From contig OZ244044.1 in assembly GCA_965215275.1 (NCBI GenBank), positions 736,001-800,000 of the forward strand: a DNA stretch of 64,000 nucleotides, given 5' to 3'. The notes below the pieces were generated by a model. The model was given only the letters and a program-made list of their open reading frames with translations, was not told where the DNA came from and searched no databases. This document shows, piece after piece, positions 13,895 through 61,002 of the stretch. Every line of letters starts with the position of its first letter. Position 1 is the first letter of the stretch. Origin of the DNA: Thermodesulfobacteriota bacterium. Lineage in GTDB: Bacteria; Desulfobacterota_D; UBA1144; Nemesobacterales; JAJCZQ01. The translations under genes were made by a program, and so were the position numbers.

Positions 13895-15166
13895 CTAAGA
13901 TGCAAGTCGTTCTTTCCCGTCAAAAAAATACAGCGGGTCACCTACGTTCTTTACCAGATCTTCGGTTATAACGCAGCGTTTCAAACCGCCCATTGACGGA
14001 GTTTTATATGAAATATCAAGCATGATCGACTCGATTATAGCCCTAAGACCACGAGCACCGGTTTTTTTCTCTATGGTTTCCTGAGCTATGGCCTCCAGCG
14101 CCCCATCGGTTACCTCCAGCTTAACGCCTTCCATCTCCATCAGTTTCTGGAACTGTTTTATAATGGCGTTCTTGGGCTGGGTCAGGATACTTACAAGCGA
14201 TTCCTTATCAAGCTCGTCCAGGACCGCCGTGACCGGTATCCTGCCGACAAACTCCGGTATAAGTCCGAACTGTATCTTATCCTCCGGCTGCAGCATCTTT
14301 AACAGTGAACTTCTGTCCTTTTCATCCACTTCGTCTATCTTGGCCTCAAAACCGATCGCCGTCTGCCTGATCCTGTTCTTTATGATCTGATCAAGACCAC
14401 AGAACGAACCACCACATATAAACAGGATATTGGAAGTATCTATCTGAATAAATTCCTGATGAGGGTGCTTTCTGCCACCTTTTGGAGGAATATTCACCTT
14501 TGCCCCTTCGATTATCTTTAATAATGCCTGCTGAACCCCTTCACCTGATACATCCCTTGTTATAGATGGATTATCCCCGGATTTCCTTGCCAGTTTATCT
14601 ATCTCGTCAATATAGATAATTCCCTTTGAGGCCCTTTCCACGTCATAATCGGCGGCGTGTAAAAGGCTGACTATTATATTCTCGACGTCTTCACCAACGT
14701 AACCGGCCTCGGTATAACAGGTCGCATCAACGATAGCGAACGGGACATCAAGCATTTCCGCCAGGGTCTGTGCTAAAAGGGTCTTTCCCGAACCAGTTGG
14801 ACCGATCAGCATAATATTGCTTTTCTGTACCTCTACCCCGTCTTTAATACCTATGGCCGCGTTCAGCCCGACCCTTTTGTAGTGATTGTAAACTGCAACT
14901 GAAAGGACCTTTTTTGCGTAATCCTGACTTATAACGTATTCATCAAGGAACGCTTTTATATCGGACGGGATCGGGAGGGACATATTAGGCGACCCATGAG
15001 AACACTGTCTTTTTTCGTCATCGATTATTATTTCATTGCAGAGCTTTATACACTCGTTGCATATATAAGCACTGGGACCCGCGACCAGCTTTACCACTTC
15101 CTTCTGGTCCTTACCGCAGAACGAGCAGTTTAAAACCCCTTCTTTACCTGTTCTACCCTTTTTCAT
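13895..15166 (-). CDS. clpX: ATP-dependent Clp protease ATP-binding subunit
   Basis: CSFC/CNEC zinc finger, [11 protein letters not shown] loop. Confidence 0.98.
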
Positions 15167-15340
15167 TTTTGAGAATACTCTCTTTTTTCGTCATCAATTA
15201 TTATTTCATTGCAGAGCTTTATACACTCGTTGCATATATAAGCGCTGGGACCCGCTACCAGTTTTTTCACGTCCTTCTGGTCCTTACTGCAGAACGAGCA
15301 ACTTAAACCCCTTTCTTTACCTGTTCTACCCTTTTTTCAT
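15163..15340 (-). pseudogene. Tandem duplicate of the clpX N-terminal zinc-binding domain
   Basis: 174-bp offset copy encoding [16 protein letters not shown]...CNECIKLC...EYSQK*; A6 instead of A5 after its ATG. Confidence 0.85.
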
Positions 15341-16002
15341 TTTACAGTAACCTCTTGATCAAGGGTTATAGAATCATCAACGGAACCTTCCTTGTCAAGT
15401 TCACCTTTTACCACCTCTTCTCTGTTACTGATTATAGTATCAGCCACCCCGTAGTCCACGGCATTCTGGGCGGTCATAAAGAAGTCCCTGTCCGTGTCTT
15501 TTTCGATCTTTTCCAGTGTCTGACCCGTGTGCAGTTCCAGTATCCTGTTCAGATTCTCTCTTATCCGGAGTATTTCCTTTGCATGTATCTGAATATCACT
15601 TGCCTGCCCCTGTATACCGGCAAGTACCTGGTGCAGCATTACCCTGGCATGGGGAAGGACGTACCTTTTCCCTTTTTTACCGGCAGCAAGAAGTACCGCT
15701 GCCATACTTGCGGCCTGACCGATGCATATCGTACAGACATCCGATCGTATGTACTGCATCGTGTCATAGATCGCCAGTCCCGAAGTTACGTTACCTCCAG
15801 GGGAGTTTATGTAAATGTAAAGGGGTTTCTGGGGATTTTCGGACTCCAGAAAAAGAAGCTGGGCGATCACCAGATCGGCAACGCTGTCGTTTATCGCCGA
15901 CCCTATGAATATTATCCTGTCCTTGAGCAGGCGGGAAAATATATCATAAGCCCTCTCCCCCTTGCTCGTCTGCTCAACCACTATCGGGACGTAACTTGAC
16001 AT
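15337..16002 (-). CDS. clpP: ATP-dependent Clp protease proteolytic subunit
   Basis: YINSPGG, AASM, MLHQ, DRD motifs. Confidence 0.97.
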
Positions 16003-17730: not shown

Positions 17731-19986
17731 GGGAAGTATATATTTAACCATGCTAAAATAAAATATAGCCTTTGTATATTGATAGTTATTAACTAAGTAA
17801 GAGATATTATTTATCCATTTGACGTTCAGGCATGATAAAAAGTCAAATAAAAAGAGTTATGAACATGAACATCTTATTTAGAATAATACCCCCCCCCATT
17901 AAGTCAGTAATTCCCTTTTTCTTTCTTCTGTGTTTTGTATCCATTGAGACATATGGACAGATCGATAACTGTGACACCAGTACTACCGGTTTCAATGATC
18001 CCTTATACGGCTGTCAGTGGCATCTGAAAAATACAGGACAGCTTGGGGCTGTAACTACCTCTGGAGAAGATATAAACGTAGAAGGGGTCTGGGATAATGG
18101 CACGTTAGGTGCTGGAATTAACGTGGCGGTGGTAGATGACGGTATGCAGACGGGTCATGCGGACCTTACGGACAATGTAAATACCAGACTGAACCATAAT
18201 TATTCAGGAAGCGGTAATGTATACGACCCTTCAAAAGCTCGTGGTACACGTGTATCGGGAGTTATAGCAGCAGCGGGTGATAACAGCCTTGGAGTAAGAG
18301 GTGTAGCACCACAGGCAAGTATCTATGCTTATAACTTAGCTGGTAACTTCAGCGGTACCAACGCAAAGGATGCCATGGTCCGTAACAGAGATATAACGGC
18401 TGTATCCGTCAACAACTGGGGACCGGATGACACGGCTGTTCTTATAGAGGCTTCATCAGAGTGGGAAGAAGGAGTGAGAACTGGTATAAGAGAAGGGTTT
18501 GGTGGTAAAGGGGTGTTTTACGTATGGGCGGCAGGGGACGGATATGAAGGATCAGATCAGGCTAATCTTGACGAGTACTCCAACTACTACGCTGTAACTG
18601 CGGTATGTTCGGTAGATGGAGAAGGGAACAAGAGTTCTTTTTCAGAAGAAGGAGTAAATCTGTGGGTATGTGCTCCAGGTGAAGATATTACAACTACTGA
18701 TAATAACGATGGATATATTTATGATGCGAGTGGAACGGCATATTCAGCAGCGCAGGTTGCAGGTGTGGCGGCACTGATGAGAGAGGTAAACGGTGACCTT
18801 GGCTGGAGGGACATAAAGCTGATACTTGCAGCTTCAGCCCGTAAGAACGACGCTTCCGACACGGGCTGGGAGACAGGAGCACATAAATACGGTTCTGATA
18901 CAGAGAGTTATAATTATAATACTAAGTACGGTTTTGGTGTGACAGATGCTGATGCGGCAGCAGGACTTGCCGGAAGCTGGACCACTGTTCCACTGATGAG
19001 AACCCTTACTGCTTCCTCGGGTTCCATTGATACGGCAATCCCCGACCGCGATAACGAAAACAGAGTAGACGGAGAAGTTACTGACAGACTGACCATACCA
19101 GATACTTCTCTTTTTTTTACAGAGTTTGTAGAGGTTGAGCTTAATTTCTCTCACACGTTCTTACCAGAACTGGAAATACAGATAACGTCTCCTGACGGTA
19201 CTGTGTCGAAGTTTACTGAGGAATATGTAACAGCAGCTTTCAAAATTATAGACGACACTTCACTCATTATGGATGACTTTAGCTACACGAACAAAACTTA
19301 TCGTTTTGGTTCAGCTAGGCACCTTGGAGAAGCCCCTTCCGGAGAATGGGTTTTGAAGATATCTGACACTTCTCCTGACGATACAGGGACTTTACATTCC
19401 TGGAGCATTAACGTTTACGGGCATAAGGCCGTAGAAGGTACGGCACCAGGCTTTGAAGGTGAGACGATAGATAATAAGAATTATGTGACGGGCAGAGCAA
19501 TAACACCAGAGACGCTGCCTTTGGCAGCGGGAGGGGAGGGAATATTAACTTACAGCCTGTCCCCTCGTTTACCTGCTGGACTTACTTTCAGATCAGCTGA
19601 CAGAACGCTGAGCGGAACACCAACTGCTGCATCTTCTGGCAGGTATATGTATGCAGCGACGGATGAAGATGGAGATAAGGATGAGCTGAGTTTTACGATC
19701 AGGGTAAGAACCCCAGCTGGTCGGACGTCAGGTACTGACGCAGGTGGAGGAGGATGTGTGCTCTCCGATCAGAACGAAGCTATTTCTGATCTGTCCGGAG
19801 CAGTGGCATCTCTGATGCTGATACCTGTATCTGTAGCGATCAGAAGAAGGATAAGGTCTCTCGGATAAAGACCTAGTAATTCACTCCTTTCCAGGACACT
19901 TAACTAACTGATATCTTTCCGTCAGATCTGATGTTGTTAAAAAACATCGTCTTTGTTCATTCAGCATAGCTGCCTGTATAATTTCC
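17731..19986. mobile_element. Degenerate TIR-bounded cassette carrying S8 paralogue 1
   Basis: Left end gggaagtatatatttaaccatgc, right end gcatagctgcctgtataatttcc (15/23 inverted match); flanks aaatataa / aaagacaa. Confidence 0.45.
17832..19868 (+). CDS. Kexin-like S8 protease homologue (catalytically dead) with P domain, Ig-like repeat and GGGGC-TM tail
   Basis: DPLYGCQWHL, VAVVDDG; catalytic His->Arg (ARGT) and Ser->Ala (GTAYS). Confidence 0.88.
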   Translation: MIKSQIKRVMNMNILFRIIPPPIKSVIPFFFLLCFVSIETYGQIDNCDTSTTGFNDPLYGCQWHLKNTGQLGAVTTSGEDINVEGVWDNGTLGAGINVAVVDDGMQTGHADLTDNVNTRLNHNYSGSGNVYDPSKARGTRVSGVIAAAGDNSLGVRGVAPQASIYAYNLAGNFSGTNAKDAMVRNRDITAVSVNNWGPDDTAVLIEASSEWEEGVRTGIREGFGGKGVFYVWAAGDGYEGSDQANLDEYSNYYAVTAVCSVDGEGNKSSFSEEGVNLWVCAPGEDITTTDNNDGYIYDASGTAYSAAQVAGVAALMREVNGDLGWRDIKLILAASARKNDASDTGWETGAHKYGSDTESYNYNTKYGFGVTDADAAAGLAGSWTTVPLMRTLTASSGSIDTAIPDRDNENRVDGEVTDRLTIPDTSLFFTEFVEVELNFSHTFLPELEIQITSPDGTVSKFTEEYVTAAFKIIDDTSLIMDDFSYTNKTYRFGSARHLGEAPSGEWVLKISDTSPDDTGTLHSWSINVYGHKAVEGTAPGFEGETIDNKNYVTGRAITPETLPLAAGGEGILTYSLSPRLPAGLTFRSADRTLSGTPTAASSGRYMYAATDEDGDKDELSFTIRVRTPAGRTSGTDAGGGGCVLSDQNEAISDLSGAVASLMLIPVSVAIRRRIRSLG

Positions 19987-36120: not shown

Positions 36121-36260
36121 GGGACTTATATACTTTAGTACATAAGTACTAAACATACTGTTCTGCAAGCAGAGTCCCTCTTAATTCCCCGTTCTCTTTT
36201 GATAAAACATTTACAGCCTGCATCGGGAACTCAAGTCTGGCTGTCCCACCCGACATAGTG
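36121..36260 (-). ncRNA. Putative omegaRNA scaffold overlapping the tnpB 3' end
   Basis: Conserved with 1-76 and 58417-58545; perfect hairpin tttagtac-ttat-gtactaaa; tcggg/cccga stem. Confidence 0.6.
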
Positions 36261-37602
36261 TCTTTTCACTATTGCAAATGTTTATAGCTGCATTCGTGTC
36301 TGCATGGTCTTTATGACCGCAATACACACACTTAAATACTTCTCCTTTTCTGTTCCTTTTATCTCTGTATCCGCACTCAGAACAGGTCTGTGACGTCCAT
36401 TGAGCCGGGTTCCTGATCAGCTTGCCACCAGTGCTTTTAACCTTGTATTCAAGCTGATTTAATACCTTGCCCAATTGCTGTTCCCGTAAGGACCTGTTTA
36501 ATCCAGATTTCTGCTTTACTTTCTTACCCGGATCTCCCACGGTCCCCTTTGCCGATCTGCTCATATCCCTTAATCTCAGATCTTCTGATATAACAAAATT
36601 ATACGCTCTTGACAGTTCTGTAGTTAACCTGTGTATTTTGTTATGTTCCTTTATTGCTGTTCTTGCTCGTTCCTTCCCAAGCAGTTTTACCTTCTTCTTT
36701 CTCCCGTTGGAACCTTTTTCAGCTCTTGAAACTGCTCTTTGCTTTCTTTTGTCTTTCTTTCTGCTTACTTCAGTTCCCTTGTAAAACGACCCATCTGATA
36801 AAGCAATCCTGTTCCTTACTCCAAGGTCTATTCCTATCGCTCTGTCCAGTCCTCTGTCCTCTCCAGCTATTGTTTCGTAAATAAACTGGATCTCTACTCT
36901 TAAAGCTGTTCTTAATATCCTGATGTATTTTGTTCCTTCCGGTATGCTTCCTCTGAATGAGATCCTGCCTGCTCCCTTTACCGTTAAATATGTCCTTCTC
37001 TCTCCTTTCTTTACATTTCCCCATGTATATGTTTCAAAACTTCTTACCTTCCTGCTGCTGTTCTTATATCTAGGACTGCCTCTCAATCCTTTAAGATGTT
37101 CACTGTATGCCTTATCCACTCTCTTTAACGTCCTTTGCTGTCCCTGAACGCCTGCCTTGCTGAATTCTTTCAATAAAACATCATTCCTTATCTCAGTCAG
37201 TGACTTCGCCTGATCTTCGTAACTTACTGACTTCTTCTTTATCTCCTGTTTTGTTAACTCTCTCCAGTTAACTGGATCTTCGCAAGGTCTTATAGTACTT
37301 ACAAACCTGTTAACTGCTTCATAAACTGTATCCAGATATTTAACTCTGTTCTTCTTGTTGTAAGAAGTACCAAACTCCCATTGTGGGTAGAAATACATCT
37401 GTAATCTTTCTTCTGACAAACCCCACTTCTTCAGCTTCTTGTATTTTTTGTACGCTTCTTTCCTTTCTTCCAGAGCGCTGTTATACAGATAGGTAAGCTG
37501 GTCCAAAGTCCTTTCCAAACCCTTATGAGTTGAAGGGTGATTCAATCCAGCCACTCTGCGTTCCGTCCTCGTCTGCTTAATTATCCTGTTTTCTCTATAC
37601 AT
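36211..37602 (-). CDS. tnpB: RNA-guided endonuclease TnpB
   Basis: AIGIDLGV, ISEDL, CSEC/CVYC, HADTNAA: RuvC D-E-D intact. Confidence 0.95.
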   Translation of the reverse strand: MYRENRIIKQTRTERRVAGLNHPSTHKGLERTLDQLTYLYNSALEERKEAYKKYKKLKKWGLSEERLQMYFYPQWEFGTSYNKKNRVKYLDTVYEAVNRFVSTIRPCEDPVNWRELTKQEIKKKSVSYEDQAKSLTEIRNDVLLKEFSKAGVQGQQRTLKRVDKAYSEHLKGLRGSPRYKNSSRKVRSFETYTWGNVKKGERRTYLTVKGAGRISFRGSIPEGTKYIRILRTALRVEIQFIYETIAGEDRGLDRAIGIDLGVRNRIALSDGSFYKGTEVSRKKDKRKQRAVSRAEKGSNGRKKKVKLLGKERARTAIKEHNKIHRLTTELSRAYNFVISEDLRLRDMSRSAKGTVGDPGKKVKQKSGLNRSLREQQLGKVLNQLEYKVKSTGGKLIRNPAQWTSQTCSECGYRDKRNRKGEVFKCVYCGHKDHADTNAAINICNSEKTLCRVGQPDLSSRCRL

Positions 37603-37730
37603 TCCTCTGTAATTATACCACGATCACACTTAGCTATTAAGTCCTTTGTTGGGTACTTAAGTATATAAGTCCCCAATTTTTTATTATGTTTATCCAACTC
37701 GTGATTTGTTTAAAGAATAAAGGTTAAGAT

Positions 37731-37868
37731 ATGGGTAGGAAACAAAAGATAATTCCCCCATTAGATGCAACATTTGATGAAGCAATAAAAATAATGTTTG
37801 CTCCCCAAATAGAACTATCTAAAAAATATAGAACTCAAAGAAAATTAAAAGAAAATGAAAAAAGTTAA
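37731..37868 (+). CDS. 45-aa micro-ORF between stacked cassette ends
   Basis: MGRKQKIIPPLDATFDEAIKIMFAPQ...; similar peptide at 45345-45476. Confidence 0.55.
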   Translation: MGRKQKIIPPLDATFDEAIKIMFAPQIELSKKYRTQRKLKENEKS

Positions 37869-37895
37869 GTAAATCAAAAGATTAAATTATCTTGG

Positions 37896-37940
37896 GTACT
37901 AAAGTATATAGTCCCCTTTTTTATTAAAGTATATAAGTCC
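37896..37940. repeat. Two further right-end motif copies
   Basis: gtactaaagtatatagtcccc (37896-37916) and ttaaagtatataagtcc (37924-37940). Confidence 0.8.
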
Positions 37941-37954
37941 GTCAATTAATGATC

Positions 37955-41913: not shown

Positions 41914-43005
41914 GTGAGATTAACTTCTTTAAATCTGAGGAATTTCAGGACTTATGAAAAGCTCAATGTATCTTTTCATGACAAGTTCAACCTCATCTAC
42001 GGGGACAACGCCCAGGGAAAGACCAACCTTCTCGAAGCCATCTACCACATCTGTTCCGCCAGACCTTTCAAGGCGGTAAAGAACGAGGAACTGATAAAAT
42101 TCGGACAGGAAGACTCCAGTATAAAGGGAGAGATAATCTCTGACCGCGGACTTGATGAGATCAATATCTATATAAGTAAGGAGAAAAAGACCTTAAAACT
42201 GAACGGCAAGATAGTCCGCAGGCTCAGCAGCAATCTGGGAAAATTCAGCATCGTGCTTTTTTTACCAAAGGACCTGGAGATCATTAAAGGTTCACCAAGC
42301 GTAAGAAGACGTTACCTTGACGCCCTTATATGCAACCTGAACCCAGACTATCTGCGGGACTTCAAGGACTACCAGAAAAACATCAATCACAGGAACAAGA
42401 TCCTTTCCGGAGCAAACCGCTTCAGTAATGCAGTGCTTGAAGTATGGGACTCCAAAGTCGCGGAAATAGGTTCAAAACTTACCAAGAAAAGGGAAGAAAC
42501 AATAACGAAGATCGCAGATAAGGTCAGTGAGCTTTACAACTCCACCTCCGGCGTTAATGCAAAGATCGAGGTCACGTACAGAACGTCCTACCAAAAAGAC
42601 GCAGACATACATGGTTCGCTCCTGAGGGCGTTAAAGGGAAACCTGGACAGGGACAGAGAAAAGGGACACACCACGGTCGGACCTCACAGGGACTATATAA
42701 GTTTTATGATAAACGGTAAGGACACGACAAAGTACGCTTCTCAGGGAGAATCCAAGAACTTCGTGCTTGCACTGAAGGCCACTGAAATATACATGTATAA
42801 CTTAATAAAAGGACAAAATCCCATTTTACTGCTTGACGACATTACAAGCGAACTCGACAGGAACCGAAGAGGTTTCCTGTTCAAACTCCTGCAGGACTAC
42901 GACGGTCAGGTGTTCGTCACCTCCACGGGTATTGAGGAAATTCCCTACGCAGGTGATAAAAAAATACTTAACGTAGTAAAAGGCACGGCAAGAGCAATTA
43001 ACTGA
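41914..43005 (+). CDS. recF: DNA replication and repair protein RecF
   Basis: GDNAQGKTN, GPHRD, SQGE, LLDD. Confidence 0.95.
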   Translation: MRLTSLNLRNFRTYEKLNVSFHDKFNLIYGDNAQGKTNLLEAIYHICSARPFKAVKNEELIKFGQEDSSIKGEIISDRGLDEINIYISKEKKTLKLNGKIVRRLSSNLGKFSIVLFLPKDLEIIKGSPSVRRRYLDALICNLNPDYLRDFKDYQKNINHRNKILSGANRFSNAVLEVWDSKVAEIGSKLTKKREETITKIADKVSELYNSTSGVNAKIEVTYRTSYQKDADIHGSLLRALKGNLDRDREKGHTTVGPHRDYISFMINGKDTTKYASQGESKNFVLALKATEIYMYNLIKGQNPILLLDDITSELDRNRRGFLFKLLQDYDGQVFVTSTGIEEIPYAGDKKILNVVKGTARAIN

Positions 43006-43048
43006 TCTTCAGTTATAATAGCTGTAATATCAACATTCGGAGACCTAA

Positions 43049-43939
43049 ATGAACGTAAAGATCATAGACTTGAAATTCTTTGGAAGTGAGACCATAGGGT
43101 CCTATCTCGTGGAAACGAAAGATGGACCTTTTATCATAGAGACCGGACCTGATTCCACTTTTTCCAACCTTGAAAAAGGACTATCAGAAAGCGGTTACGC
43201 GGTGGGGGATATAAAGAACGTTTTTGTCACCCACATACACCTTGACCACTCCGGAGCCGCGTGGAGATTTGCAAAGGAAGGTGCAACGGTCTACGTGCAT
43301 CCAAGAGGTGCACCACACCTTGTCAACCCTGAAAGGCTTATGGCGTCCGCAGCGATGATATATGGAGATAAAATGCAGGAGCTCTGGGGTACTGTCGAAG
43401 GAATAGATGAAGATAAAGTGGTCGCTGCTGAGGACGGACAGGTAATAAACATCGGAGAGTTTGAAATACAGGTGCATGAAACTACAGGACACGCCAATCA
43501 TCATAACGCCTACCTTGTGGAAGACGGACTTTTTACCGGTGACGTGGCAGGATGCCGAATCAGCAACGGACCTCCGATACCACCAACTCCCCCACCGGAC
43601 ATACACGTTGAAAGATGGCACAGCTCCGTGGATAAGATACGCAAGCTCGATCCAAAGTCCCTGTATCTCACGCATTTTGGAAAATTCACGGACGTGCACG
43701 AGCATCTGGACGCCGTGATGAAGACACTTGACGAATGGTCAGAGTGGATAGGTGAAAGAGTAAAGGAAGGAAGATCGGACAAGGAGATCATACCCGATTT
43801 TCTGAAGTTCTACAGAACGTACTTTGATAAAGCCGGCACGGAGAATTCCGAGTTCGATAAATATGAATCTGCCGACCCTCACTGGATGAACGTCGGGGGA
43901 CTTGTACGGTACTGGAACAAGTATAAACTCGCTGAATAA
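43049..43939 (+). CDS. MBL-fold metallo-hydrolase
   Basis: THIHLDH, GHANHH, TGD, THFG. Confidence 0.9.
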   Translation: MNVKIIDLKFFGSETIGSYLVETKDGPFIIETGPDSTFSNLEKGLSESGYAVGDIKNVFVTHIHLDHSGAAWRFAKEGATVYVHPRGAPHLVNPERLMASAAMIYGDKMQELWGTVEGIDEDKVVAAEDGQVINIGEFEIQVHETTGHANHHNAYLVEDGLFTGDVAGCRISNGPPIPPTPPPDIHVERWHSSVDKIRKLDPKSLYLTHFGKFTDVHEHLDAVMKTLDEWSEWIGERVKEGRSDKEIIPDFLKFYRTYFDKAGTENSEFDKYESADPHWMNVGGLVRYWNKYKLAE

Positions 43940-44116
43940 TGTACCACGGCTTAATGGGTTGTTGTTTTAAAATCAGGGAACTATATACTTTATTCACCAG
44001 AAAACGAGTAAGGAGTTAGTACAATAATCAAATTAAATTCAGACATAGAATTAGAAAAAAATAAGGAAACAGACATAAATATTTCCTGTGGAGATACCAA
44101 TACTTTAATTAAGAAA

Positions 44117-44782
44117 GTGCAGGATAATTCCATTGATCTGATCGCTACCGACCCTCCATATCAGATTAATTTTGAAAATAATAACTGGGATAAGAAAGAC
44201 GGACTGAATTGGAACTTTTTAGCAAGTGAGTTCGCAAGGGTTTTAAAACCAAGCGGGAGTTTAATTATTTTTCAAGGATGGTCTCACGTTGCTGATACCA
44301 AGGTTATTCTGGATAAATACTTTACATTAAAAAACTGGATCATCTACGACAGAGTAAAAGGACGAGGTGCCAAGACCAACCTGGTCTCAACACGGGAAGA
44401 TATACTTTGGTATGTAGTGGATGAAGATAATTATACGTTTAACAAGGTCAGTTCCAGCATTAAAAAGAAGACAAAGGGGATGGGATTAAAGAACGGCAAT
44501 GAATTCAGGGCATTATCAAACGTCTGGTCCGACATTCCTCCACTTGTTCCCTGGAGCCAGGAAAGAGTGGATCATCCTACTCAAAAACCGCTGTATTTAA
44601 TGGATAGAATAATCAGAATATATTCAAATGAACATGATACGGTATTAGATCCTTTTTTAGGAAGCGGAACTACATCGGTTGCCTGTAAACTACTGAACAG
44701 AAACTGTATTGGTTTTGAATCAGAAAAAGAATACTTTCAGATAAACAAGGAAAGAATTAGCCATTATGGAAGACTTATTTAG
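44117..44782 (+). CDS. DNA amino-methyltransferase (beta class); true start probably upstream
   Basis: TDPPY, HPTQKP, LDPFLGSGTT. Confidence 0.92.
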   Translation: MQDNSIDLIATDPPYQINFENNNWDKKDGLNWNFLASEFARVLKPSGSLIIFQGWSHVADTKVILDKYFTLKNWIIYDRVKGRGAKTNLVSTREDILWYVVDEDNYTFNKVSSSIKKKTKGMGLKNGNEFRALSNVWSDIPPLVPWSQERVDHPTQKPLYLMDRIIRIYSNEHDTVLDPFLGSGTTSVACKLLNRNCIGFESEKEYFQINKERISHYGRLI

Positions 44783-45344
44783 AGATGGCATACTCAATTT
44801 AAATACTCGCCAGTTTGGAACTGCTGTAGAGCTTATTGTTGTACTGTTAAAACGTTATAGGAAAAGCAATCAGCTTGATTGTGATTTAATTGATCCAGAA
44901 ACCAATAAAAAAATAGAAGTAAAATCTTCAAGAGTTTATAAAAAGCAGTCTTTAAATTTTACTTTGGATAATCTATACGATTTAATTGTTAATAACACAA
45001 ACAGAAATCGTTTGTTAAGGCAGGATCAGGCAACACAAGAAAAGTTTGATTGCAATATACAACAGGTCAAAACAGATCTATTTGATACACTTTATTATTT
45101 ATTATTTTTCTATGATGTTATTGAAGTGTTTAAAATTGAAAATGAAGAAATACAAAAAGATGTGAATTTGAATTATAGTAATAGGCAACATAGAGGAAAC
45201 GAAGGAGAAGGTCAGTTTCACATAACACAAAAAAATTATAAATATCATAGAAATAAATACTTTATTCAGTCAATAACATATGAAGAGATTAAAAAACTAT
45301 TATTAAATAAGGAGTATTTTAATATAAAAAGAAGATCAAAATGA
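44766..45344 (+). CDS. Putative type II restriction endonuclease
   Basis: DLID...IEVKSS PD-(D/E)XK motif; overlaps the MTase stop. Confidence 0.75.
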   Translation: MEDLFRDGILNLNTRQFGTAVELIVVLLKRYRKSNQLDCDLIDPETNKKIEVKSSRVYKKQSLNFTLDNLYDLIVNNTNRNRLLRQDQATQEKFDCNIQQVKTDLFDTLYYLLFFYDVIEVFKIENEEIQKDVNLNYSNRQHRGNEGEGQFHITQKNYKYHRNKYFIQSITYEEIKKLLLNKEYFNIKRRSK

Positions 45345-45556
45345 CAGAAAAAGAGAACTTATACAAATATATTTAATCCTCATATAACAGCAATGATGGA
45401 AGAGGTAGCTAAAGCTATATTCAGACCTAATGCTGAATTTAAAGAGAAATCTTTAAGAATGAAAACAAAAAACTAATAAAACTAAATAATAACTTTGGCG
45501 AACAAAGTATTTAGTTCCCAAAAATTATTGTTATTATATTTTCCTTTTTTTCTGAA

Positions 45557-45633
45557 CGGGGCGTGGCGCAGTTGGCTAGCGCGCAGCATTTGGGATGCTG
45601 AGGTCGGAGGTTCAAGTCCTCTCGCCCCGACCA
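45557..45633 (+). tRNA. tRNA-Pro(TGG)
   Basis: Cloverleaf with TGG anticodon and CCA. Confidence 0.95.
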
Positions 45634-45938
45634 ACACAAAACTGAACGAACCAGCGTTTGATTGAATCCTAGGGGTATTACTTAGAACTTCTCCCATATA
45701 TTCAGCTGTGATACCTTGTAGAGAGACAATTTTTTCTTAAAAAGCAAACAAGCGAATTAACCCCCTAAACAATAATAAAAACCATTAGAAACAAAAAGAG
45801 AGTATGGCAACTAAAGACAAGTAACTAAAACTAAGGGACTAAAATTGTCTTGAAATAATTTGTGATTATTTACTGTTAAAAACTCTATAGGGGCTCTGGA
45901 ACATTGCTTTTCCAGTTCATCTCTACCACATTTAGCTA

Positions 45939-46544
45939 TCAGTTATTATTTCTCTTCATTGGTCTGCTTAAATCATATACAGAATATTTTCTATCACGAA
46001 AAGTAACATCAATAAGATATTCTAAAAAATCAATGCATTCTATATTATCCCACTTTGTTACAGAAATTTTTCCGTATGGTTCAGGTAAATTATCAATAAT
46101 TCTAGCTGGCAAATAGGGATTCTCTTTTTCATACTCTTCTCTTGTGCCTGTTATCCAATTAGGAATCTCTGGATAATACTTTTTTTCATATTCTCTGTGA
46201 GCTGCATGAATGCTACCCTCCTTTACCTCTGGAAGGGTTATTACTAAAATACCAGATTTCTTATTCACTTTTCCATCATACATACTTGAATAAAGTTCCC
46301 AATCTATATGTTTTCGGGATTTAGTCTCTTCTCCTACAAGTAAAATTGTTACTGTAGAATCTTTTAAGTAATCATCTCTTATTTTTTCACGTATTTGCTG
46401 ATCGGTTAAATCTTCTTTTATATCCCCAGTATCAACAGAAGCATCTATAAAAATGTCATATTTTTCATTCATTTTAAGTAGTTCTTCCTTATAATATTGG
46501 TCATTTTCATGATGGTAACTAATAAAAACTTTATGCTTTCTCAT
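45939..46544 (-). CDS. ThsB-like TIR-domain protein (MTH538/DUF1863 type)
   Basis: HKVFISYHH, STVTILLVG, HIDWELYSS with catalytic Glu. Confidence 0.88.
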   Translation of the reverse strand: MRKHKVFISYHHENDQYYKEELLKMNEKYDIFIDASVDTGDIKEDLTDQQIREKIRDDYLKDSTVTILLVGEETKSRKHIDWELYSSMYDGKVNKKSGILVITLPEVKEGSIHAAHREYEKKYYPEIPNWITGTREEYEKENPYLPARIIDNLPEPYGKISVTKWDNIECIDFLEYLIDVTFRDRKYSVYDLSRPMKRNNN

Positions 46545-47031
46545 TATACTCTCCTTTGTAATCTTCTATTTCTGTTAAATCCTCTACGCCTGCCATATCA
46601 GCAAGTAGCTTTGTATATTTACTAAGGTCCTTTTGAAGTTGAGAAAGTTCTTTTCTAAACTCATTACATTTATTTGGACAACTAAAAGCACCTGCCATAG
46701 ACTCTCTATGCCACTTTGCAGTAAAAGGCCTAATAATTTGGTTAAGAACGACAATTGCTATTTTGGTAAATGAAATGCATTTCTTCCCATGCTTTTTTAT
46801 GATTTTTCTTGTTAGAGGAAATATAGTATAAATGCTTTCAAGTGCTGTTTTTTCATCTCCATGTTCGTTTTGCAAAGCTTGCGTTGTCGTTCTAGTTAAA
46901 AGTTCAATATAAAGAGACCAAGCAGCATCTTTGTCTACATCATTTAAATCAAATTCTGCCTCAAGAACCGATATCTTTATTTTTAACTTAGACAATCCAA
47001 ATTTTTGAAGTTGTTCTCTAAAGTTCATCAC
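46531..47031 (-). CDS. Hypothetical helical protein coupled to the TIR gene
   Basis: 166-aa ORF overlapping the TIR gene start; AAWSLYIELLTR, IRPFTAKWH. Confidence 0.7.
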   Translation of the reverse strand: MMNFREQLQKFGLSKLKIKISVLEAEFDLNDVDKDAAWSLYIELLTRTTTQALQNEHGDEKTALESIYTIFPLTRKIIKKHGKKCISFTKIAIVVLNQIIRPFTAKWHRESMAGAFSCPNKCNEFRKELSQLQKDLSKYTKLLADMAGVEDLTEIEDYKGEYNEKA

Positions 47032-47057
47032 AGTTATATACCATACACCTCCTTGAT

Positions 47058-48518
47058 TTAAGAACTAATTCGTGAAAAATCTTTTAAAATTCTATTAAAT
47101 TCTTTTCTATTATGTCTTCTAGAAATTTCTTCCAAAAAACTTTGATCATAAAATTCTATTTTCTTAAATTTTTTGTACTTTTCATTTATTGACTTGACCC
47201 AATCCTTATTTCTAAAAGAAACAATAAAGTAAATTTTTATCTCCTTTGAATCTCTTTTAGAGTTGCTCCAACGACCAAAAAAATAATATTTTTCTTCGAT
47301 CCACTTTTTTATCTCTCCATCTTTATTTCTAATGTTTGACCATGCCTTAGTTTCAATAATATAGCGATAGTTTTCATCTTCAAAATAGACATCTATTTCT
47401 CTTTTTACAGATTCTAATTTAACAATCTTTTCCATTCTAACCCCCGTATAATCCAGATCAAATAAAACTTTAGCCATCAAGTTAAAGAGATGCCCTCTAA
47501 TGTTATTGTCAATGCCTAGTTTTAAATCTATAAGTTTTTTAAAAGTCTCTTCTGCTTTTCCTATATTGATATTGTTTTTTATGTCGTTGTACAAACTCCT
47601 TAATTCTTCTAAAGCTATAAGGAGTTCATCACCCCCAAAGGTTTTTGCAGAAATAGTCATAAAGCCTTTAGAACGTAACTCATATAAAAGAGGCTCTGCC
47701 ATGCTTTGAAAGAATATAGCAGGAATAAATCTTGTACTTCTTTTCTGGAACTTAGTTAATTCAAACTTTTTTAAAACCGGTTTGATGTTGTGTTCGTTTA
47801 TTCTACTTCCTAAAAGAATATCGCAACAAATAAATCCATTCAATTTACCCCTCTTTACTCCATCAAGATAAGTAGGTCCAACCAAACTCCAATGACAGCT
47901 TCCATACTTAGGAATTTCATTATCTGTTCTAACTTTAATTGCACCTTTCGAGGAAAAATTTAGATTAACAAATAAGATCTTTAGTTGTTCTAAAATTCTA
48001 TCTTCTATAGCAAGATAAAATTTTGATTCTGAATAAGATGACAAAGTTTTATCATACAAGTAGTAAAATGTTTTTTCTGACTCGTCATCTTTATCTTTCT
48101 TTATCATTTCAACTTTCTCTAACGACTCCACCGCATCCTGAAAAAGTTTTCGATTCTGTGCATTGTTAGTTGGAAGTCCTGAGGCTATAGGCAGATACTT
48201 TGCTAAACATATTCCCCCTCTACTTTCTAAAGCGTTTAAAATGAGAACTTCTGCCATACTGTACTTATCACAATATTGGTGAAACTTCTGTTTATTTTGA
48301 CAATCTAATTCATACAAATAAAAAAACTTTTGATTATGTTTAAAGTTAAAACCTTCTATTTTTTTTACAGGAACAGATATTCTGTCAAGGGCTTTTGGGG
48401 CAGAGGTAGATGTCATATTGTATCTAGTTTTAAGTTCTTCTATAATTTCACCAGATAGTAATGGACCATTTGCCAAAATGTTTGCTATTTTTTCGTTATT
48501 AGTATTTGTCATAACCAA
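47058..48518 (-). CDS. Hypothetical protein with C-terminal PD-(D/E)XK-like motif
   Basis: EIDVYFE...IIETKAW; AT-rich. Confidence 0.65.
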   Translation of the reverse strand: MVMTNTNNEKIANILANGPLLSGEIIEELKTRYNMTSTSAPKALDRISVPVKKIEGFNFKHNQKFFYLYELDCQNKQKFHQYCDKYSMAEVLILNALESRGGICLAKYLPIASGLPTNNAQNRKLFQDAVESLEKVEMIKKDKDDESEKTFYYLYDKTLSSYSESKFYLAIEDRILEQLKILFVNLNFSSKGAIKVRTDNEIPKYGSCHWSLVGPTYLDGVKRGKLNGFICCDILLGSRINEHNIKPVLKKFELTKFQKRSTRFIPAIFFQSMAEPLLYELRSKGFMTISAKTFGGDELLIALEELRSLYNDIKNNINIGKAEETFKKLIDLKLGIDNNIRGHLFNLMAKVLFDLDYTGVRMEKIVKLESVKREIDVYFEDENYRYIIETKAWSNIRNKDGEIKKWIEEKYYFFGRWSNSKRDSKEIKIYFIVSFRNKDWVKSINEKYKKFKKIEFYDQSFLEEISRRHNRKEFNRILKDFSRISS

Positions 48519-51909: not shown

Positions 51910-54571
51910 ATGTTTAAGATAATACCCCCCCCCATCTAAGTCATTACTAACTTTAGTCTTTATTCTTCTGTTTATACTGGTAATAGCTGCAAAAGGGCAG
52001 AGCAGCCTGGAAGAAACATTATCTGAATGCAGAGATATCAGTGCAGGAACGGAAGATCCGTTATACGGATGTCAGTGGCATCTGAAGAACACAGGACAGT
52101 TAATTTATTCAGGTAAGAGAATAACATCAGGAGAAGATATAAACATAGAGGGAGTGTGGAACGAAGACGTATACGGTGCCGGAATTAACGTAGCAGTAGT
52201 AAGTGACGGCATAGACCTTTCACACGAGGACCTTTCTGCTAACGTCCGTTCCGGACCGAACTATGATCTTTCTGAAAGAAACAATTCAGAAGAGAACAGT
52301 TCAGAAAAAGATAATTCAGAAAGAGATGATCTTTCAGACGGTTCATCCTTTACCGGAACACGAGCGGCAGGAGTAACAGCAGCAACTGGATATAACGGAC
52401 TGGGAGTAAGAGGAACAGCACCTGGTGCGAGTATATACAGTTACAGGTTATCCGGTGATCTCAGTGAAGCGGACGCGGTGGTCCGTAATAAGGAAATAAC
52501 GGCAGTATCGGTTAACGGCCGGGGATCTGAGGACGGAGCTTTTTTTCAGGAGGCTTTATCTTCCTGGGAAGAAGGAGTGGAACTTGGTATAAGTAAAGGG
52601 TTTTATGGTAAAGGAGTGTTTTACGTCCGGGGAGCAGGGGACGGGCATGAGAATAACGATCAGGCTAATTTTTCTGAATATTCTAATTACTACGGCGTAA
52701 CTGCCGTGTGTTCAACAGACGGCTTTGGAAAAAAGAGTATATTTTCAGAAGAGGGAGTAAATCTATGGGTATGTGCACCTGGTTCTGATATTGTAACTAC
52801 TGATAACAATAACGATTACGTTGTAACATCCGGAACTGTCCTATCAGCTTCACAGGCTGGAGGAGTGGCAGCACTGCTGAGAGAGGTGAATGGAAATCTG
52901 AGCTGGAGGGATATAAAGCTTATACTTGCGGGTTCAGCACGGCAGAACGACGTTTCTGACCTTATCTGGGAGACTGGAGCATTTAAATACGGCTCTGACG
53001 TGGAAAGATATAAATATAATCCTAAGTATGGTTTTGGAGTGGTAGACGCGGAAGCAGCGGCAGAGCTTGCAGAAAGCTGGAAAGGCGTTGGTGAGATGAG
53101 GACCGTTACAGCCTTTTCAGATAATGAGATAACAATTCCTTATGGAGAAGGGAATGGAGAAGGAGAGGCAGACGGGGTCGCTGTCTCAGGACTTATTATC
53201 CCTGACCTTGAAGAAACAACGTTTACGGAGTTCGTTGAAGTTGAACTTGTTCTCTCGTGTGACTGCTTACAGGACCTCAATATAAATATAACCTCTCCTT
53301 CCGGGACAGTATCTGAACTTGTGCGGGAGGTTGTAAGTGGACCTTCGGATGAAAAAGAAAAGAACTGCGTCAGTTACCTGAGAAGAACACATCGTTTCGG
53401 GTCGGCAAGACACCTCGGAGAAGACCCTTCCGGAGAATGGATCCTTCATATAACTGATACTGCTTATGGAGATGAAGAAAATGAAGAAAACACCGTTACC
53501 CTGCACTCATGGAGCGTTAAGGTGTATGGACATTTTTATCAGGGATCTGGCAGTGAGATCACTCCTAAAGCTTTAACCTTCGGCGGTGCGACGATCCCAA
53601 CCCAGAATTATTTTGTAGGAGAAGCAATAACACCAGTAATGCTGCCTGAGGCAACCGGGGCAAGCGACATAACATACAGTTTTAATCCTGCTTTAGCAAG
53701 AGGATTGGAATTTGATCAGGATACCCGAACTATAAGCGGAACACCAGCTATTACTCATGTGTCAGGTCGTTTGTATTCATATGTTGCAAGAGGTGGCGGA
53801 CGGATTGTAACTATACCTTTTACTATTAGAATTAGCCCTCGACGAGTGCCGACCTTCGGCAGTGAGACCATAGATAATAAAGTGTATATAAACGGCATTA
53901 CAGCAGTAAATGAAACACTGCCTGAAGCAACGGGAGGGAATGCTCCATTAACTTACAGTTTAAGCGGTACTTTACCTATTGGAGTAATTTTTACCGCAAA
54001 CACCAGAGAGTTAAGTGGAACACCCAATGTTGATAATAATCTAAGTATACTTCCTTTAACTTTGTCTTACACATATAAAGTAACAGACAATGATGGAGAT
54101 ACAGAAGAGATAACGTTCAGTATCACTACAGAAGAAGACAGCGACCCGGACTTCAGCGGTGTGACAATACCTGCTCAGGTGTACAGGGGGAGAACAATAA
54201 GTCTGCCTGAAGCAACGGGAGGGAATGCACCGTTAAGATACAGTATAGATCCTCGTTTACCGACGGGAATGAGATTGAACGAAGACACAGGGGTAATAAG
54301 CGGGACGCCCGCGAGTGCGTCGTCTGAGAGGACCTACACGTACACGGTAACGGACAGGAATGGAGGTACGGACGAGTTGACTTTCATGCTCAGTGTAGCG
54401 GCACCTCCACCGACATCAACGGGCAGTGGTTCAGGCGGAGGTGGAGGAGGATGTGCGATATCAGATCAGAGCAGCACTGCTTCTGATATTCTCGGAGTAA
54501 TGATATGTCTGATGCTCATACCTGTGTCAGTAGTGATTAGAAGGAAGAGAAGAGATCAGGTAAAGAATTAG
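51910..54571 (+). pseudogene. Kexin-like S8 homologue 2 (catalytically dead), signal peptide out of frame at a C9 tract
   Basis: ATG 51910 hits TAA 51937; removing one C gives signal peptide plus DPLYGCQWHL in frame with 52154..54571; D->S, H->T, S->V. Confidence 0.8.
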
Positions 54572-58671: not shown

Positions 58672-61002
58672 TTAATACATCTTTATATGAGGCCTTATCT
58701 TCCTTCTGATCACTACTGATACAGGTATCAGCATCAGACATGCAATTACTCCAAGCAGATCAGAAACAACATCGTTCTGATCGGAGATCGTACATCCTCC
58801 TCCACCGCCGGCATCAGTATCTGGCGTCCGGTCTTCTATTGGACTATTTACCCTGATCGCAAAACTCAACGAAGCCATATCTCCATCTGCGTCTGTTACC
58901 GTATATGTGTAAGTAGTTCTTCTCATTGCACTGGTGAGTGTTCCACTTATCACTCGAGTGGTTTTATTAAAACTCAATTCAGCAGGTAAAGCAGGAGTTA
59001 AACTGTAAGTTAATGGAGCATTCCCTCCTGTTGCAGCAGGTAACGTTTCTGTTACTGCTGTACCCCACATATACTCCTTATCAGTTATCATCTCATTGCC
59101 AAAGGTCAGTGCTGTATGACCATGAACTTGAACGCTCCACGAGTGTAAAGTCCCTATACCATTTCCAGAACGAGTGTCAGATATCTTCAAAGTCCATTCT
59201 CCAGAAGGGTCTTCTTCGAGATGCTTAGCTGAACCAAAGCGATGAGTGTGGTTGGTGTATGCAAAATCCCCGCGTAAGATCTGAGAGACATATATAACCG
59301 ATCCCGCTACATATTCCTCGGTAAGTTGCGACACAGTACCCTCAGGGGACGTTATCTGTATCTCTAACTCCGGAAAGAAAGTGTGAGTGAACGTGAGAAC
59401 TATCTGTACAAATTCTGTAAAAAGATCAGTATCAGTTATGGTCAGGGTGCTTGTAATTCCAAGTGGGTCATTATCAGGAATTGCCTCCTCGACACTCTCA
59501 TAAGCAATCAGAGTTCTCATCTGTGGAACCCTGTTCCAACTTCTGGAAAGTTCTACTGCAGCCTCAGCATCCACTACGCCAAAACCGTACTTTGGATTGT
59601 AATTATAACTGTCTGTATCAGAACGGTATTTAAGTGCTCCCATCTCCCAGCCCGGATCGGTCGGGTCGGTCTTGCGGGCTGAAGCTGCCAGTATCAGTTT
59701 CAGGTCCCTCCAGCTAAGATCACCGTTTACCTCCCGCATCAGTGCTGCAACCCCCGAAACGATCGGAGCAGAAAGTGACGTTCCGTTAACTCCAATACGA
59801 TAACGGTCTTTATTAGTGGTCGTTGTAATAAGCGAACCTGGAGCACATACCCACAGATTTACTCCCTCTTCCGAAAAGGAACTTTTCCTGCCACTGCCAT
59901 CTACAGAACAGATGGAAGTTACAGCGTAGTGGTTAGAATACTCTTCAAAATTAGCCTGGTCGTATAAAGTATGTCCATTTCCAGCTGCCCAGCTGTAAAA
60001 AACTCCTTTGCCACCAAACCCTTCCCTGATACCTGTTTCCACTGCCATTTCCCAAGCACTGTCAGCAGGGTGAAGAACGGCAGTATCCGGTGCTCCCCAG
60101 CTGTTGTTGGATACTGCAGTTGTAGTTCGGTTACGGGTCATAGCATCCGCCCTGTTAGCCCTAGTAAAATTACCCCCTCCTATCAAGTTATAATTATAGA
60201 TACTTGCCTGAGGTGCCACTCCTCTTATACCAATCCCATTATCACCCACCGCTGCTAAAATGCCCGATACATTTGTACCATGAGCATCTAAAGGATTAAA
60301 TACATTTCTGTTTCCAGAGTAATCATGATTCAGGCTGGGATTTACATTGGCAGCCAGGTCCTCATGATCGGGGTCCATACCACTATCTACCACCGCCACG
60401 TTAATTCCATTCCCAAATACTGCATCATTCCAGACCCCCTCCACGTTTATATCTTCTCCAGCAGTTATTCTCTGCCCGTTGAACTCCAACTGCCCCGTAT
60501 TTTTCAGATGATACTGACAGCCATATAAGGGATCGTTAAAATTAGTGGCAATGTTCCCACAATCAGATAACAGATCATTATAATCAGTATCCGTTGCAAC
60601 TGTAATCTGGTAATCAACAGCTCCACTGCTTCCCACAACGATATAGTACGTTCCAGGTCTGAGACGAGCTGGAATTCCGAGGCGAGCTATAAGACTGTTA
60701 GTCCTATTTGCTATCAGATTATAGTTGCTGTCACAAAGCTGTAAACTGTAATCTAAATTATTATGGGTGAAGGTTGTCTCTATATTTACGTTAACGTCAG
60801 ATGCCGGGTCTATCTGAAAATATTCCAGTCCACCGGCACTTTCAAAACTTCCATCGTGTGCTGCTCCGTCCACTGTCAACGTGGCTTCAACCGTTTCACT
60901 GGAGTCGCAATTATTATCACTGGTCTGACCATATGCACCTATGGACACAAAACACATGAATGCAGATACAAAACACAGCAGATAAAATGATGGGAATTGC
61001 AT
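58672..61002 (-). CDS. Kexin-like S8 serine protease (intact triad) with PPC-like N domain, P domain, Ig-like repeat and GGGGC-TM tail
   Basis: VAVVDSG, AHGT, AAGNG, NGTSLSAP. Confidence 0.92.
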   Translation of the reverse strand: MQFPSFYLLCFVSAFMCFVSIGAYGQTSDNNCDSSETVEATLTVDGAAHDGSFESAGGLEYFQIDPASDVNVNIETTFTHNNLDYSLQLCDSNYNLIANRTNSLIARLGIPARLRPGTYYIVVGSSGAVDYQITVATDTDYNDLLSDCGNIATNFNDPLYGCQYHLKNTGQLEFNGQRITAGEDINVEGVWNDAVFGNGINVAVVDSGMDPDHEDLAANVNPSLNHDYSGNRNVFNPLDAHGTNVSGILAAVGDNGIGIRGVAPQASIYNYNLIGGGNFTRANRADAMTRNRTTTAVSNNSWGAPDTAVLHPADSAWEMAVETGIREGFGGKGVFYSWAAGNGHTLYDQANFEEYSNHYAVTSICSVDGSGRKSSFSEEGVNLWVCAPGSLITTTTNKDRYRIGVNGTSLSAPIVSGVAALMREVNGDLSWRDLKLILAASARKTDPTDPGWEMGALKYRSDTDSYNYNPKYGFGVVDAEAAVELSRSWNRVPQMRTLIAYESVEEAIPDNDPLGITSTLTITDTDLFTEFVQIVLTFTHTFFPELEIQITSPEGTVSQLTEEYVAGSVIYVSQILRGDFAYTNHTHRFGSAKHLEEDPSGEWTLKISDTRSGNGIGTLHSWSVQVHGHTALTFGNEMITDKEYMWGTAVTETLPAATGGNAPLTYSLTPALPAELSFNKTTRVISGTLTSAMRRTTYTYTVTDADGDMASLSFAIRVNSPIEDRTPDTDAGGGGGCTISDQNDVVSDLLGVIACLMLIPVSVVIRRKIRPHIKMY

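Follow-up and report, generated by a model that had tools for sequence, protein, structure and literature searches.

A predicted restriction-modification pair within a transposase-less IS1595-type element upstream of tRNA-Pro in a Thermodesulfobacteriota genome

Results

A predicted restriction-modification pair lies between inverted ends

We analyzed a window of 64,000 nucleotides from a Thermodesulfobacteriota genome (contig OZ244044.1; the genome is called G000 here, and coordinates with this prefix are those of the genome, all others those of the window). Between a host hydrolase gene and the gene for tRNA-Pro(TGG) lies a unit of 1544 bp (Table 1) with a GC content of 31%, as compared to 48% in the hydrolase gene on its left. 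The unit carries genes for an amino-methyltransferase (MTase) and for a predicted restriction endonuclease, which are separate and adjacent and whose ORFs overlap, followed by a short third ORF. A first-pass annotation had described inverted ends matching at 19/22 positions around MTase, endonuclease and a 'micro-peptide', and this was confirmed by comparing the ends (43976-43997 with the reverse complement of 45498-45519) and by the ORFs; over longer ends the match is 21/24. The 6/8 agreement which it reported for the flanking 8-mers was also reproduced. Taken alone this agreement is weak and within chance, as 6/8 is reached by 176 of 2756 mismatched flank pairs (6.4%) and, using the unit's own two flanks, in 6/52 and 7/52 comparisons.

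Table 1. Features of the unit and its surroundings (window coordinates)
Feature	Position	Strand	Evidence
Host metallo-beta-lactamase-fold hydrolase, left neighbour, outside the unit	43049..43939	+	PF00753, E 2.9e-21
Predicted -35 half of the host tRNA-Pro promoter	43962..43967	+	predicted from a pattern in relatives
Left target-duplication copy, degenerate	43968..43975	+	6/8 with right copy; one copy in the G001 empty site
Left terminal inverted repeat, IS1595 family	43976..43999	+	21/24 with right end; weight matrix score 31
Beta-class amino-methyltransferase, 252 aa from likely ATA start	44024..44782	+	PF01555, PADLOC
Predicted type II restriction endonuclease, 192 aa, PD-(D/E)xK fold	44766..45344	+	homologs, AlphaFold2, PADLOC
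Frameshifted copy of the 45-57-aa IS1595 backbone ORF	45341..45476	+	HMM, E 3.8e-15
Right terminal inverted repeat	45496..45519	-	end subtype as right end of the intact transporter IS G000:1002026-1005187
Right target-duplication copy	45520..45527	+	7/8 with the single 8-mer of the G001 empty site
Host tRNA-Pro(TGG), intact	45557..45633	+	ARAGORN

The ends belong to the IS1595 family

Starting from the left end of the unit, we grew a weight matrix that found 187 end sites in the 1.99-Mb genome at a score of at least 16, as opposed to 2-3 in each of three block shuffles, which leaves a family of about 180 ends. The end consensus resembles the motif of the ISNwi group of IS1595, to which the ends may belong. 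Neighbouring inward-facing ends less than 8 kb apart were paired, which gave 53 units and used only 106/187 ends. Perfect flank duplications were found at 8 bp in 17/53 units, at 5, 6 or 7 bp in none (0/53) and at 9 bp in one (1/53). Matches to the IS1595 transposase (PF12762) number 28 in the genome, with none inside the unit. Such a match is present in 21 paired units (7 with perfect 8-bp duplications) and absent from 32 (10 perfect), and most of these 10 carry TnpB-type cargo. IS1595 elements are characterized by ends of about 25 bp that start with GG and by 8-bp duplications (PMC8101967, PMC5704250, in their accessible text), and the 21/24 ends of the unit conform to this length and start. 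The ends are thus those of the IS1595 family and are specific neither to the unit nor to TnpB. A TnpB-specific nature was rejected since the same ends bound IS1595 transposases and many cargos, which bears out the earlier statement that the ends are not TnpB-specific.

The unit has no transposase of its own. With 13 transposases of the genome as tblastn queries, 0 matches were obtained within it at E<1, and thus no transposase remnant. An intact relative is found at G000:1002026-1005187, with 24/24 ends, an 8/8 duplication, a C5-MTase as cargo and an intact 317-aa transposase (G000:1002122-1003075); its end subtype is shared with the unit. The last 180 bp or so of the unit are 79% identical to G000:1004999-1005187 (E 5e-43), with 27/30 over the terminal bases, and the left end has no close match past about 30 nt. 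Including this element, 7 sister elements combine a transposase with MTase cargo, one of the transposases being only a fragment. Their order is end, transposase, cargo, peptide, end, with the cargo placed between the transposase stop and a short backbone ORF. The unit consists of IS ends and passenger genes without a transposase and has a cognate intact IS, G000:1002026-1005187, in the same genome, as described for mobile insertion cassettes (MIC).

The third ORF of the unit is this backbone ORF. It encodes a basic peptide of 45-57 aa (the one member scanned had no Pfam match), and an HMM found 25 matches in the genome at E<0.01, 18 of which stop no more than 60 nt away from an IS end; simple IS copies that carry no cargo have it as well. 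The stop of the nuclease gene overlaps the start of the ORF, just as cargo abuts it in the sister elements. In the unit, it stops after 11 codons and the homologous text resumes in the next frame, and the related strain described below shows no indel that repairs the frameshift. The enclosed 'micro-peptide' therefore exists as an ORF (ATG 45341), but it is IS backbone, broken here, and a role as R-M controller was rejected. In these IS1595 elements, the position of the cargo slot is marked by a backbone peptide so far unannotated. A further backbone-peptide ORF with two IS ends lies at 37728-37941, right after a TnpB unit, as a relic right end.

The survey of ends brought up several other units. 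TnpB genes between IS1595-type ends without a DDE transposase are numerous in the genome, several with perfect 8-bp duplications; within the window they include 36121-37673 (G000:772121-773673; 463 aa, NF040570) and, with a similar 484-aa ORF, 1-1502 (G000:735945-737502). A possible second transposase-less R-M unit (G000:801236-804893, L140) carries a C5-MTase-Vsr fusion and an EcoRII-type nuclease; its ends match only at 18/24 and its flanks at 6/8. In the transporter IS at G000:1304051-1307389 (L134), the cargo MTase has a nine-G run just past a start codon and is now out of frame, the run being a candidate phase-variable switch. Units bounded by IS ends also hold a SocA/Panacea antitoxin gene (G000:939047-940403) and a HicA-like gene next to an MTase-HNH fusion (G000:1812584-1815955). 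Three related long ORFs (17832-19868, 52154-54571 and 58672-61002; DNA 73-83% alike) have IS ends near two of them, and a 173-bp tandem duplication with 90% identity is found at 14997-15342.

Relatives show the site without the unit

The first-pass annotation had placed the unit beside tRNA-Pro. The two are adjacent, but the unit lies 37 bp upstream of the tRNA gene and not at its 3' end. This tRNA-Pro gene is the sole one with its anticodon among the 44 tRNA genes of the genome. Integration at a tRNA att site was rejected, as 37 bp separate the right end of the unit from the 5' end of the tRNA gene, which is intact and present once, and the unit has no integrase ORF. Only 4/187 ends have a tRNA within 150 bp; a general preference for tRNAs is thus not apparent.

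We searched 40 relatives and examined 11 loci where the hydrolase gene adjoins tRNA-Pro. At the hydrolase-tRNA junction, 0/11 relatives carry either end motif or R-M genes. The empty-site search that had been proposed between the two genes therefore came out in favor of an insertion, the relatives that lack the R-M pair also lacking both ends. In G001, a member of the same genus, the gap measures 77 bp, everything between the flanks of the unit is absent, and a single 8-mer remains. This empty site is clean, and an insertion is better backed by it than by the 6/8 duplication.

The unit was also found in a related strain. A 12-kb contig from run X8 of another study spans 42900-45633 with 83 differences and has the cassette at the same site; as this strain is about 97% alike, the insertion is older than a divergence of about 3%. 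In the contig the left A-run is longer by one A, which gives the register of G001, and the flank copies then agree at 7/8 if the right 8-mer is unchanged. No joint across the unit was detected in runs X5-X8, which does not prove that empty alleles are lacking. The X8 contig ceases to match at the 3' end of the tRNA, suggesting that a low-GC island past tRNA-Pro (45939-48518) may be strain-specific. The island contains a TIR gene similar to Thoeris ThsB (PF08937, E 5.5e-21) and two ORFs, 166 and 486 aa long, that matched no family.

Upstream of tRNA-Pro, 9/11 relatives share a TTG-N3 / 16-17 nt / TA-N3-T pattern, and the target 8-mer lies in the spacer of the tRNA-Pro promoter that this pattern predicts. 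From the predicted -35 element, a -10-like hexamer in the left IS end (43984-43989) is 16 nt away (17 nt in X8), and a hybrid promoter made of the host -35 and a -10 within the IS end is possible. A consensus scan of 43850-45750 found no plus-strand promoter and no terminator.

The methyltransferase has a likely ATA start

The MTase matches PF01555 (E 6e-47) and, over residues 13-247, the PADLOC model MTase_II (E 6e-60). Its motifs stand in beta-class order (DPPY at residue 43, FLGSG at 209), and its relatives in the PDB are beta-class. Gene callers place the start at GTG 44117, which omits a conserved GD segment; about 31 more codons are needed upstream. All 38 other top homologs aligned (best 40 of 891 matches) have the segment. 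The MTase frame is open from 44012 and contains no ATG, GTG or TTG before the GD segment. Of the 'complete type II RM pair' annotated at first, the MTase family and the 192-aa ORF proved real, whereas completeness is qualified by this lack of a canonical start.

The likely start is an ATA at 44024, which follows an AGGAG at a distance of 8 nt and is in rough register with Met1 of the proteins P0148 and P0151. In two other lineages, P0121 (97%) and P0122 (89%), the gene is likewise called from the internal codon, an indication that the odd start is old. In a screen of starts led by AGGAG, 136/140 were canonical and 4/140 were not. One of these 4 is the first cargo gene of a sister element (G000:1003139, L133), which apparently has an ATT start behind an AGGAG, some 90 codons ahead of the first ATG.

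We compared the unit with X8 over 40 of 87 difference rows, reaching 44386. Synonymous changes make up 8/9 of those in 44117-44386 and 14/19 of those in the neighbouring host gene; in 44024-44116, 3/4 changes are non-synonymous. The frames of both MTase and nuclease are intact, and X8 shows no indels in them.

The nuclease belongs to an unnamed family that is paired with methyltransferases

We found 318 homologs of the nuclease. It has no Pfam or NCBIfam match and is recognized by PADLOC (REase_II, E 3.9e-8). In 94 aligned sequences E22, E51 and K53 are invariant and D40 is nearly so. The AlphaFold2 model (pLDDT 93.4) resembles the PD-(D/E)xK nucleases NhoI (Z 10.7, rmsd 2.9, 122 aligned), I-Ssp6803I (Z 8.3), Eco15I (Z 8.2) and PvuII (Z 6.1) at 11-19% sequence identity. 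A profile search of the PDB gave one match (E 0.61) and Foldseek none at E<=0.001; structures of AseI and VspI are absent from the match lists, an absence that excludes nothing. The plasmid search returned one hypothetical protein, the top Atlas clusters are unnamed, and the clusters of the partner MTases are named only 'TaqI-like C-terminal' or 'N-6 DNA methylase'. A metagenome scan yielded only 4 nuclease loci, all distant. The literature searched (main texts, with queries not aimed at these two alone and most subscription papers outside) contained no description of this nuclease family or of the backbone peptide.

An amino-MTase adjoins the nuclease gene at 71 of the best 80 of 170 loci in other genomes, 39 of these MTases being of the gamma/TaqI_C class and 32 of the beta class. 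For this count, 79/113 neighbouring ORFs were scanned, and some of the 9 unpaired loci are cut off by a contig edge. Since the partners come from two MTase classes, a conventional type II nuclease is more plausible than a modification-dependent enzyme, and the MTase and nuclease of the unit very likely form a type II R-M pair. A longer paralogue (315-350 aa) lies directly upstream of the nuclease homolog at L075, L077, L079, L103, L105 and G043. The family occurs in 3/120 genomes of the class, and this patchiness argues for horizontal acquisition. The 97% relative P0001 differs at 6/192 residues, including the nearly invariant S34 (S34N).

Site avoidance in distant carriers suggests ATTAAT as a candidate site

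Hosts tend to avoid the sites of R-M systems that they have held for long (PMC4687349, in its accessible text). Of the 64 palindromic hexamers, ATTAAT shows the strongest depletion across the 80 homolog loci, with 149 sites observed and 380 expected. It falls below expectation in 50/53 loci with at least 2 expected, and is depleted in the outer flanks too. In a matched test, we compared 20-kb pieces away from the nuclease locus between carriers and 10 non-carriers sampled per family, in two families. In carriers, observed/expected ratios were 0.66 (1 genome) and 0.41 (4 genomes); in the corresponding non-carriers the ratio was 0.95 in both families. Three of the pieces were short contigs, and one non-carrier piece also had 0 sites where 8.9 were expected.

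Eight carriers of the close clade show no avoidance of ATTAAT (84 observed, 100 expected, rank 25), and the ratio in G000, which holds 625 ATTAAT sites, is 0.82. The MTase of the unit lies outside the subfamily found at ATTAAT-poor loci and is similar to it only over residues 184-250. Nucleases of the close and the distant clade have about 45% identity, with 44 conserved positions in common and a single difference. TTTAAA is low in close-clade carriers (36 observed vs 122 expected) and, less so, in their non-carrier relatives; it is not low in G000 (0.92) or in the distant clade (595 observed, 640 expected). We consider ATTAAT somewhat more likely than not to be the site of the nuclease, and TTTAAA a poor candidate. 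This gives a testable site prediction for a nuclease family that counts at least 318 proteins and has no Pfam match.

Discussion

Origin and mobility of the unit

The unit is almost certainly an IS1595 derivative. We read it, with a probability of roughly 0.7, as a transposase-less IS1595 element with an M-R cargo that stems from a transporter IS, was inserted once, became fixed and acts on ATTAAT. A transporter IS with R-M cargo would have lost its transposase by internal deletion, before or after insertion. The DDE transposase would cut at the GG ends and leave an 8-bp duplication in an A/T-rich target; a single insertion into the predicted spacer of the tRNA-Pro promoter would have been followed by fixation. 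The MTase would then methylate the ATTAAT sites of the host, and the nuclease would cut unmethylated incoming DNA. That the pair is still expressed through the ATA start seems reasonably probable to us from the sequence.

Intermediates of such a path may be present elsewhere. We examined 12 close M-R loci in other taxa. In one of them (L058), the MTase gene is immediately preceded by an IS1595-like end and a fragment of a transposase (E 2.5e-12); the core of this end scores 15.7, with a null 99th percentile of 10.0 and a maximum of 19.7 among 400. Another (L057) has an IS end 33 nt after the nuclease gene, and also a short segment similar to the C-terminus of a transposase, left unscored by the HMM. 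The other 10/12 have neither IS1595 end nor transposase fragment, indicating that the M-R pair also spreads or survives without such ends.

The first-pass annotation had called the unit a trans-mobilised defence cassette. In this account, an active mobile insertion cassette lost its transposase first, reached the site through an IS1595 transposase acting in trans and can still be moved. In favor of this, 10 of the 32 transposase-less paired units have perfect 8-bp duplications, most of them with TnpB-type cargo, and the intact 317-aa transposase belongs to an element of the same end subtype. Movement in trans thus probably occurs in this genome. The unit itself speaks against it, being single-copy in G000, with an A at position 9 of its right end where T is found in 182/187 ends, a decayed duplication, the same site in the ~97% strain and no joint across it in four runs. 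Trans-mobilisation of this unit therefore stays a proposal, and we consider a still movable cassette unlikely; the unit is now probably immobile. As to its origin, loss of the transposase after insertion explains the unit equally well as movement in trans.

Alternatively, the unit could be a decaying relic, in which the MTase start mutated to ATA, coupled translation of both genes fell and the system became silent. This would agree with the missing ATG, GTG or TTG ahead of the GD segment, the rarity of non-canonical starts behind AGGAG (136/140 being canonical), the frameshifted backbone ORF, S34N in P0001 and the slight avoidance of ATTAAT in G000. Both frames are intact, however, X8 has no indels, the MTase core shows an excess of synonymous changes, the odd start seems old given P0121 and P0122, and the sister element at G000:1003139 has an ATT-led cargo gene with an AGGAG of its own. 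Silencing therefore appears about as unlikely as continued mobility.

A more far-reaching combination is somewhat less likely still. It would see an IS1595 gene-capture chassis with a fixed cargo slot between transposase and backbone peptide, whose ATTAAT R-M operon took over the tRNA-Pro promoter after loss of the transposase. The host -35 would pair with the -10 in the IS end, the ATA start would throttle the MTase, and the sole tRNA-Pro(TGG) would be transcribed through the cassette, locking the defence genes in place.

It is very improbable that two unrelated solo IS ends bracket an R-M pair which came by another route: simple pairs include only 106/187 ends, the left end is unmatched past about 30 nt and most close homolog pairs lack ends, but the G001 empty site lacks all between the flanks and keeps one 8-mer, the ends agree at 21/24, the nuclease stop overlaps the backbone ORF start, and L057 and L058 link the same pair to remnants of IS1595. 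Just as remote is a modification-dependent nuclease of the BisI/NhoI type for which the MTase is no protective partner, a view to which the top fold matches NhoI (Z 10.7) and Eco15I (Z 8.2) lend themselves, but with identities of just 14-19%, an amino-MTase of one of two classes at 71/80 homolog loci and carriers that avoid an all-A/T palindrome.

Comparison with known systems

We return to the reading of the unit as a fixed, transposase-less IS1595 element. VspI is a type II system specific for ATTAAT. AseI and M.Hpy99XIX, also ATTAAT systems, have the site that we predict here and an adenine-type MTase partner; the link to them runs through site avoidance in distant carriers only. AseI serves to test ATTAAT methylation (PMC12239561, in its accessible text). 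With NhoI and Eco15I of the BisI family, I-Ssp6803I and PvuII, the nuclease shares the predicted fold and the E...D...ExK pattern. NhoI and Eco15I bind methylated targets, whereas the nuclease family of the unit is paired with MTases.

Transporter IS (tIS) and MIC have been defined before (PMC3129680, PMC3281130, PMC5704250, PMC8101967, PMC7986276). As far as the accessible parts of these sources describe them, the likeness covers GG ends of about 25 bp, passenger genes, a duplication of 8 bp (degenerate in the unit) and a form lacking the transposase, which a cognate IS could activate. The cargo of MTnSag1/tISCpe8 is a resistance gene, whereas that of the unit is an R-M pair between the transposase position and the 45-57-aa ORF.

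R-M genes in a transposase-less IS shell are already known as an architecture and as a route by which such genes spread. Furuta, Abe and Kobayashi (2010) found type II R-M genes flanked by imperfect inverted repeats, together with an 8-bp duplication and a relative with an empty site; the accessible text reports no active transposase, and the authors raised a transposase acting in trans (PMC2853133). Our unit resembles theirs in having R-M genes within imperfect inverted ends, an empty site in a relative and no active transposase. In the accessible text, their Xanthomonas repeats (60/65) are unique in the genome and the mobiliser is unnamed, whereas the unit described here shares its genome with about 180 IS1595 ends, intact transposases and sister elements. 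What we add is an insertion that splits a predicted tRNA promoter, a probable ATA start and an identification of the mobilising family that Furuta et al. left unnamed, together with its parents, an intermediate (L058) and empty sites.
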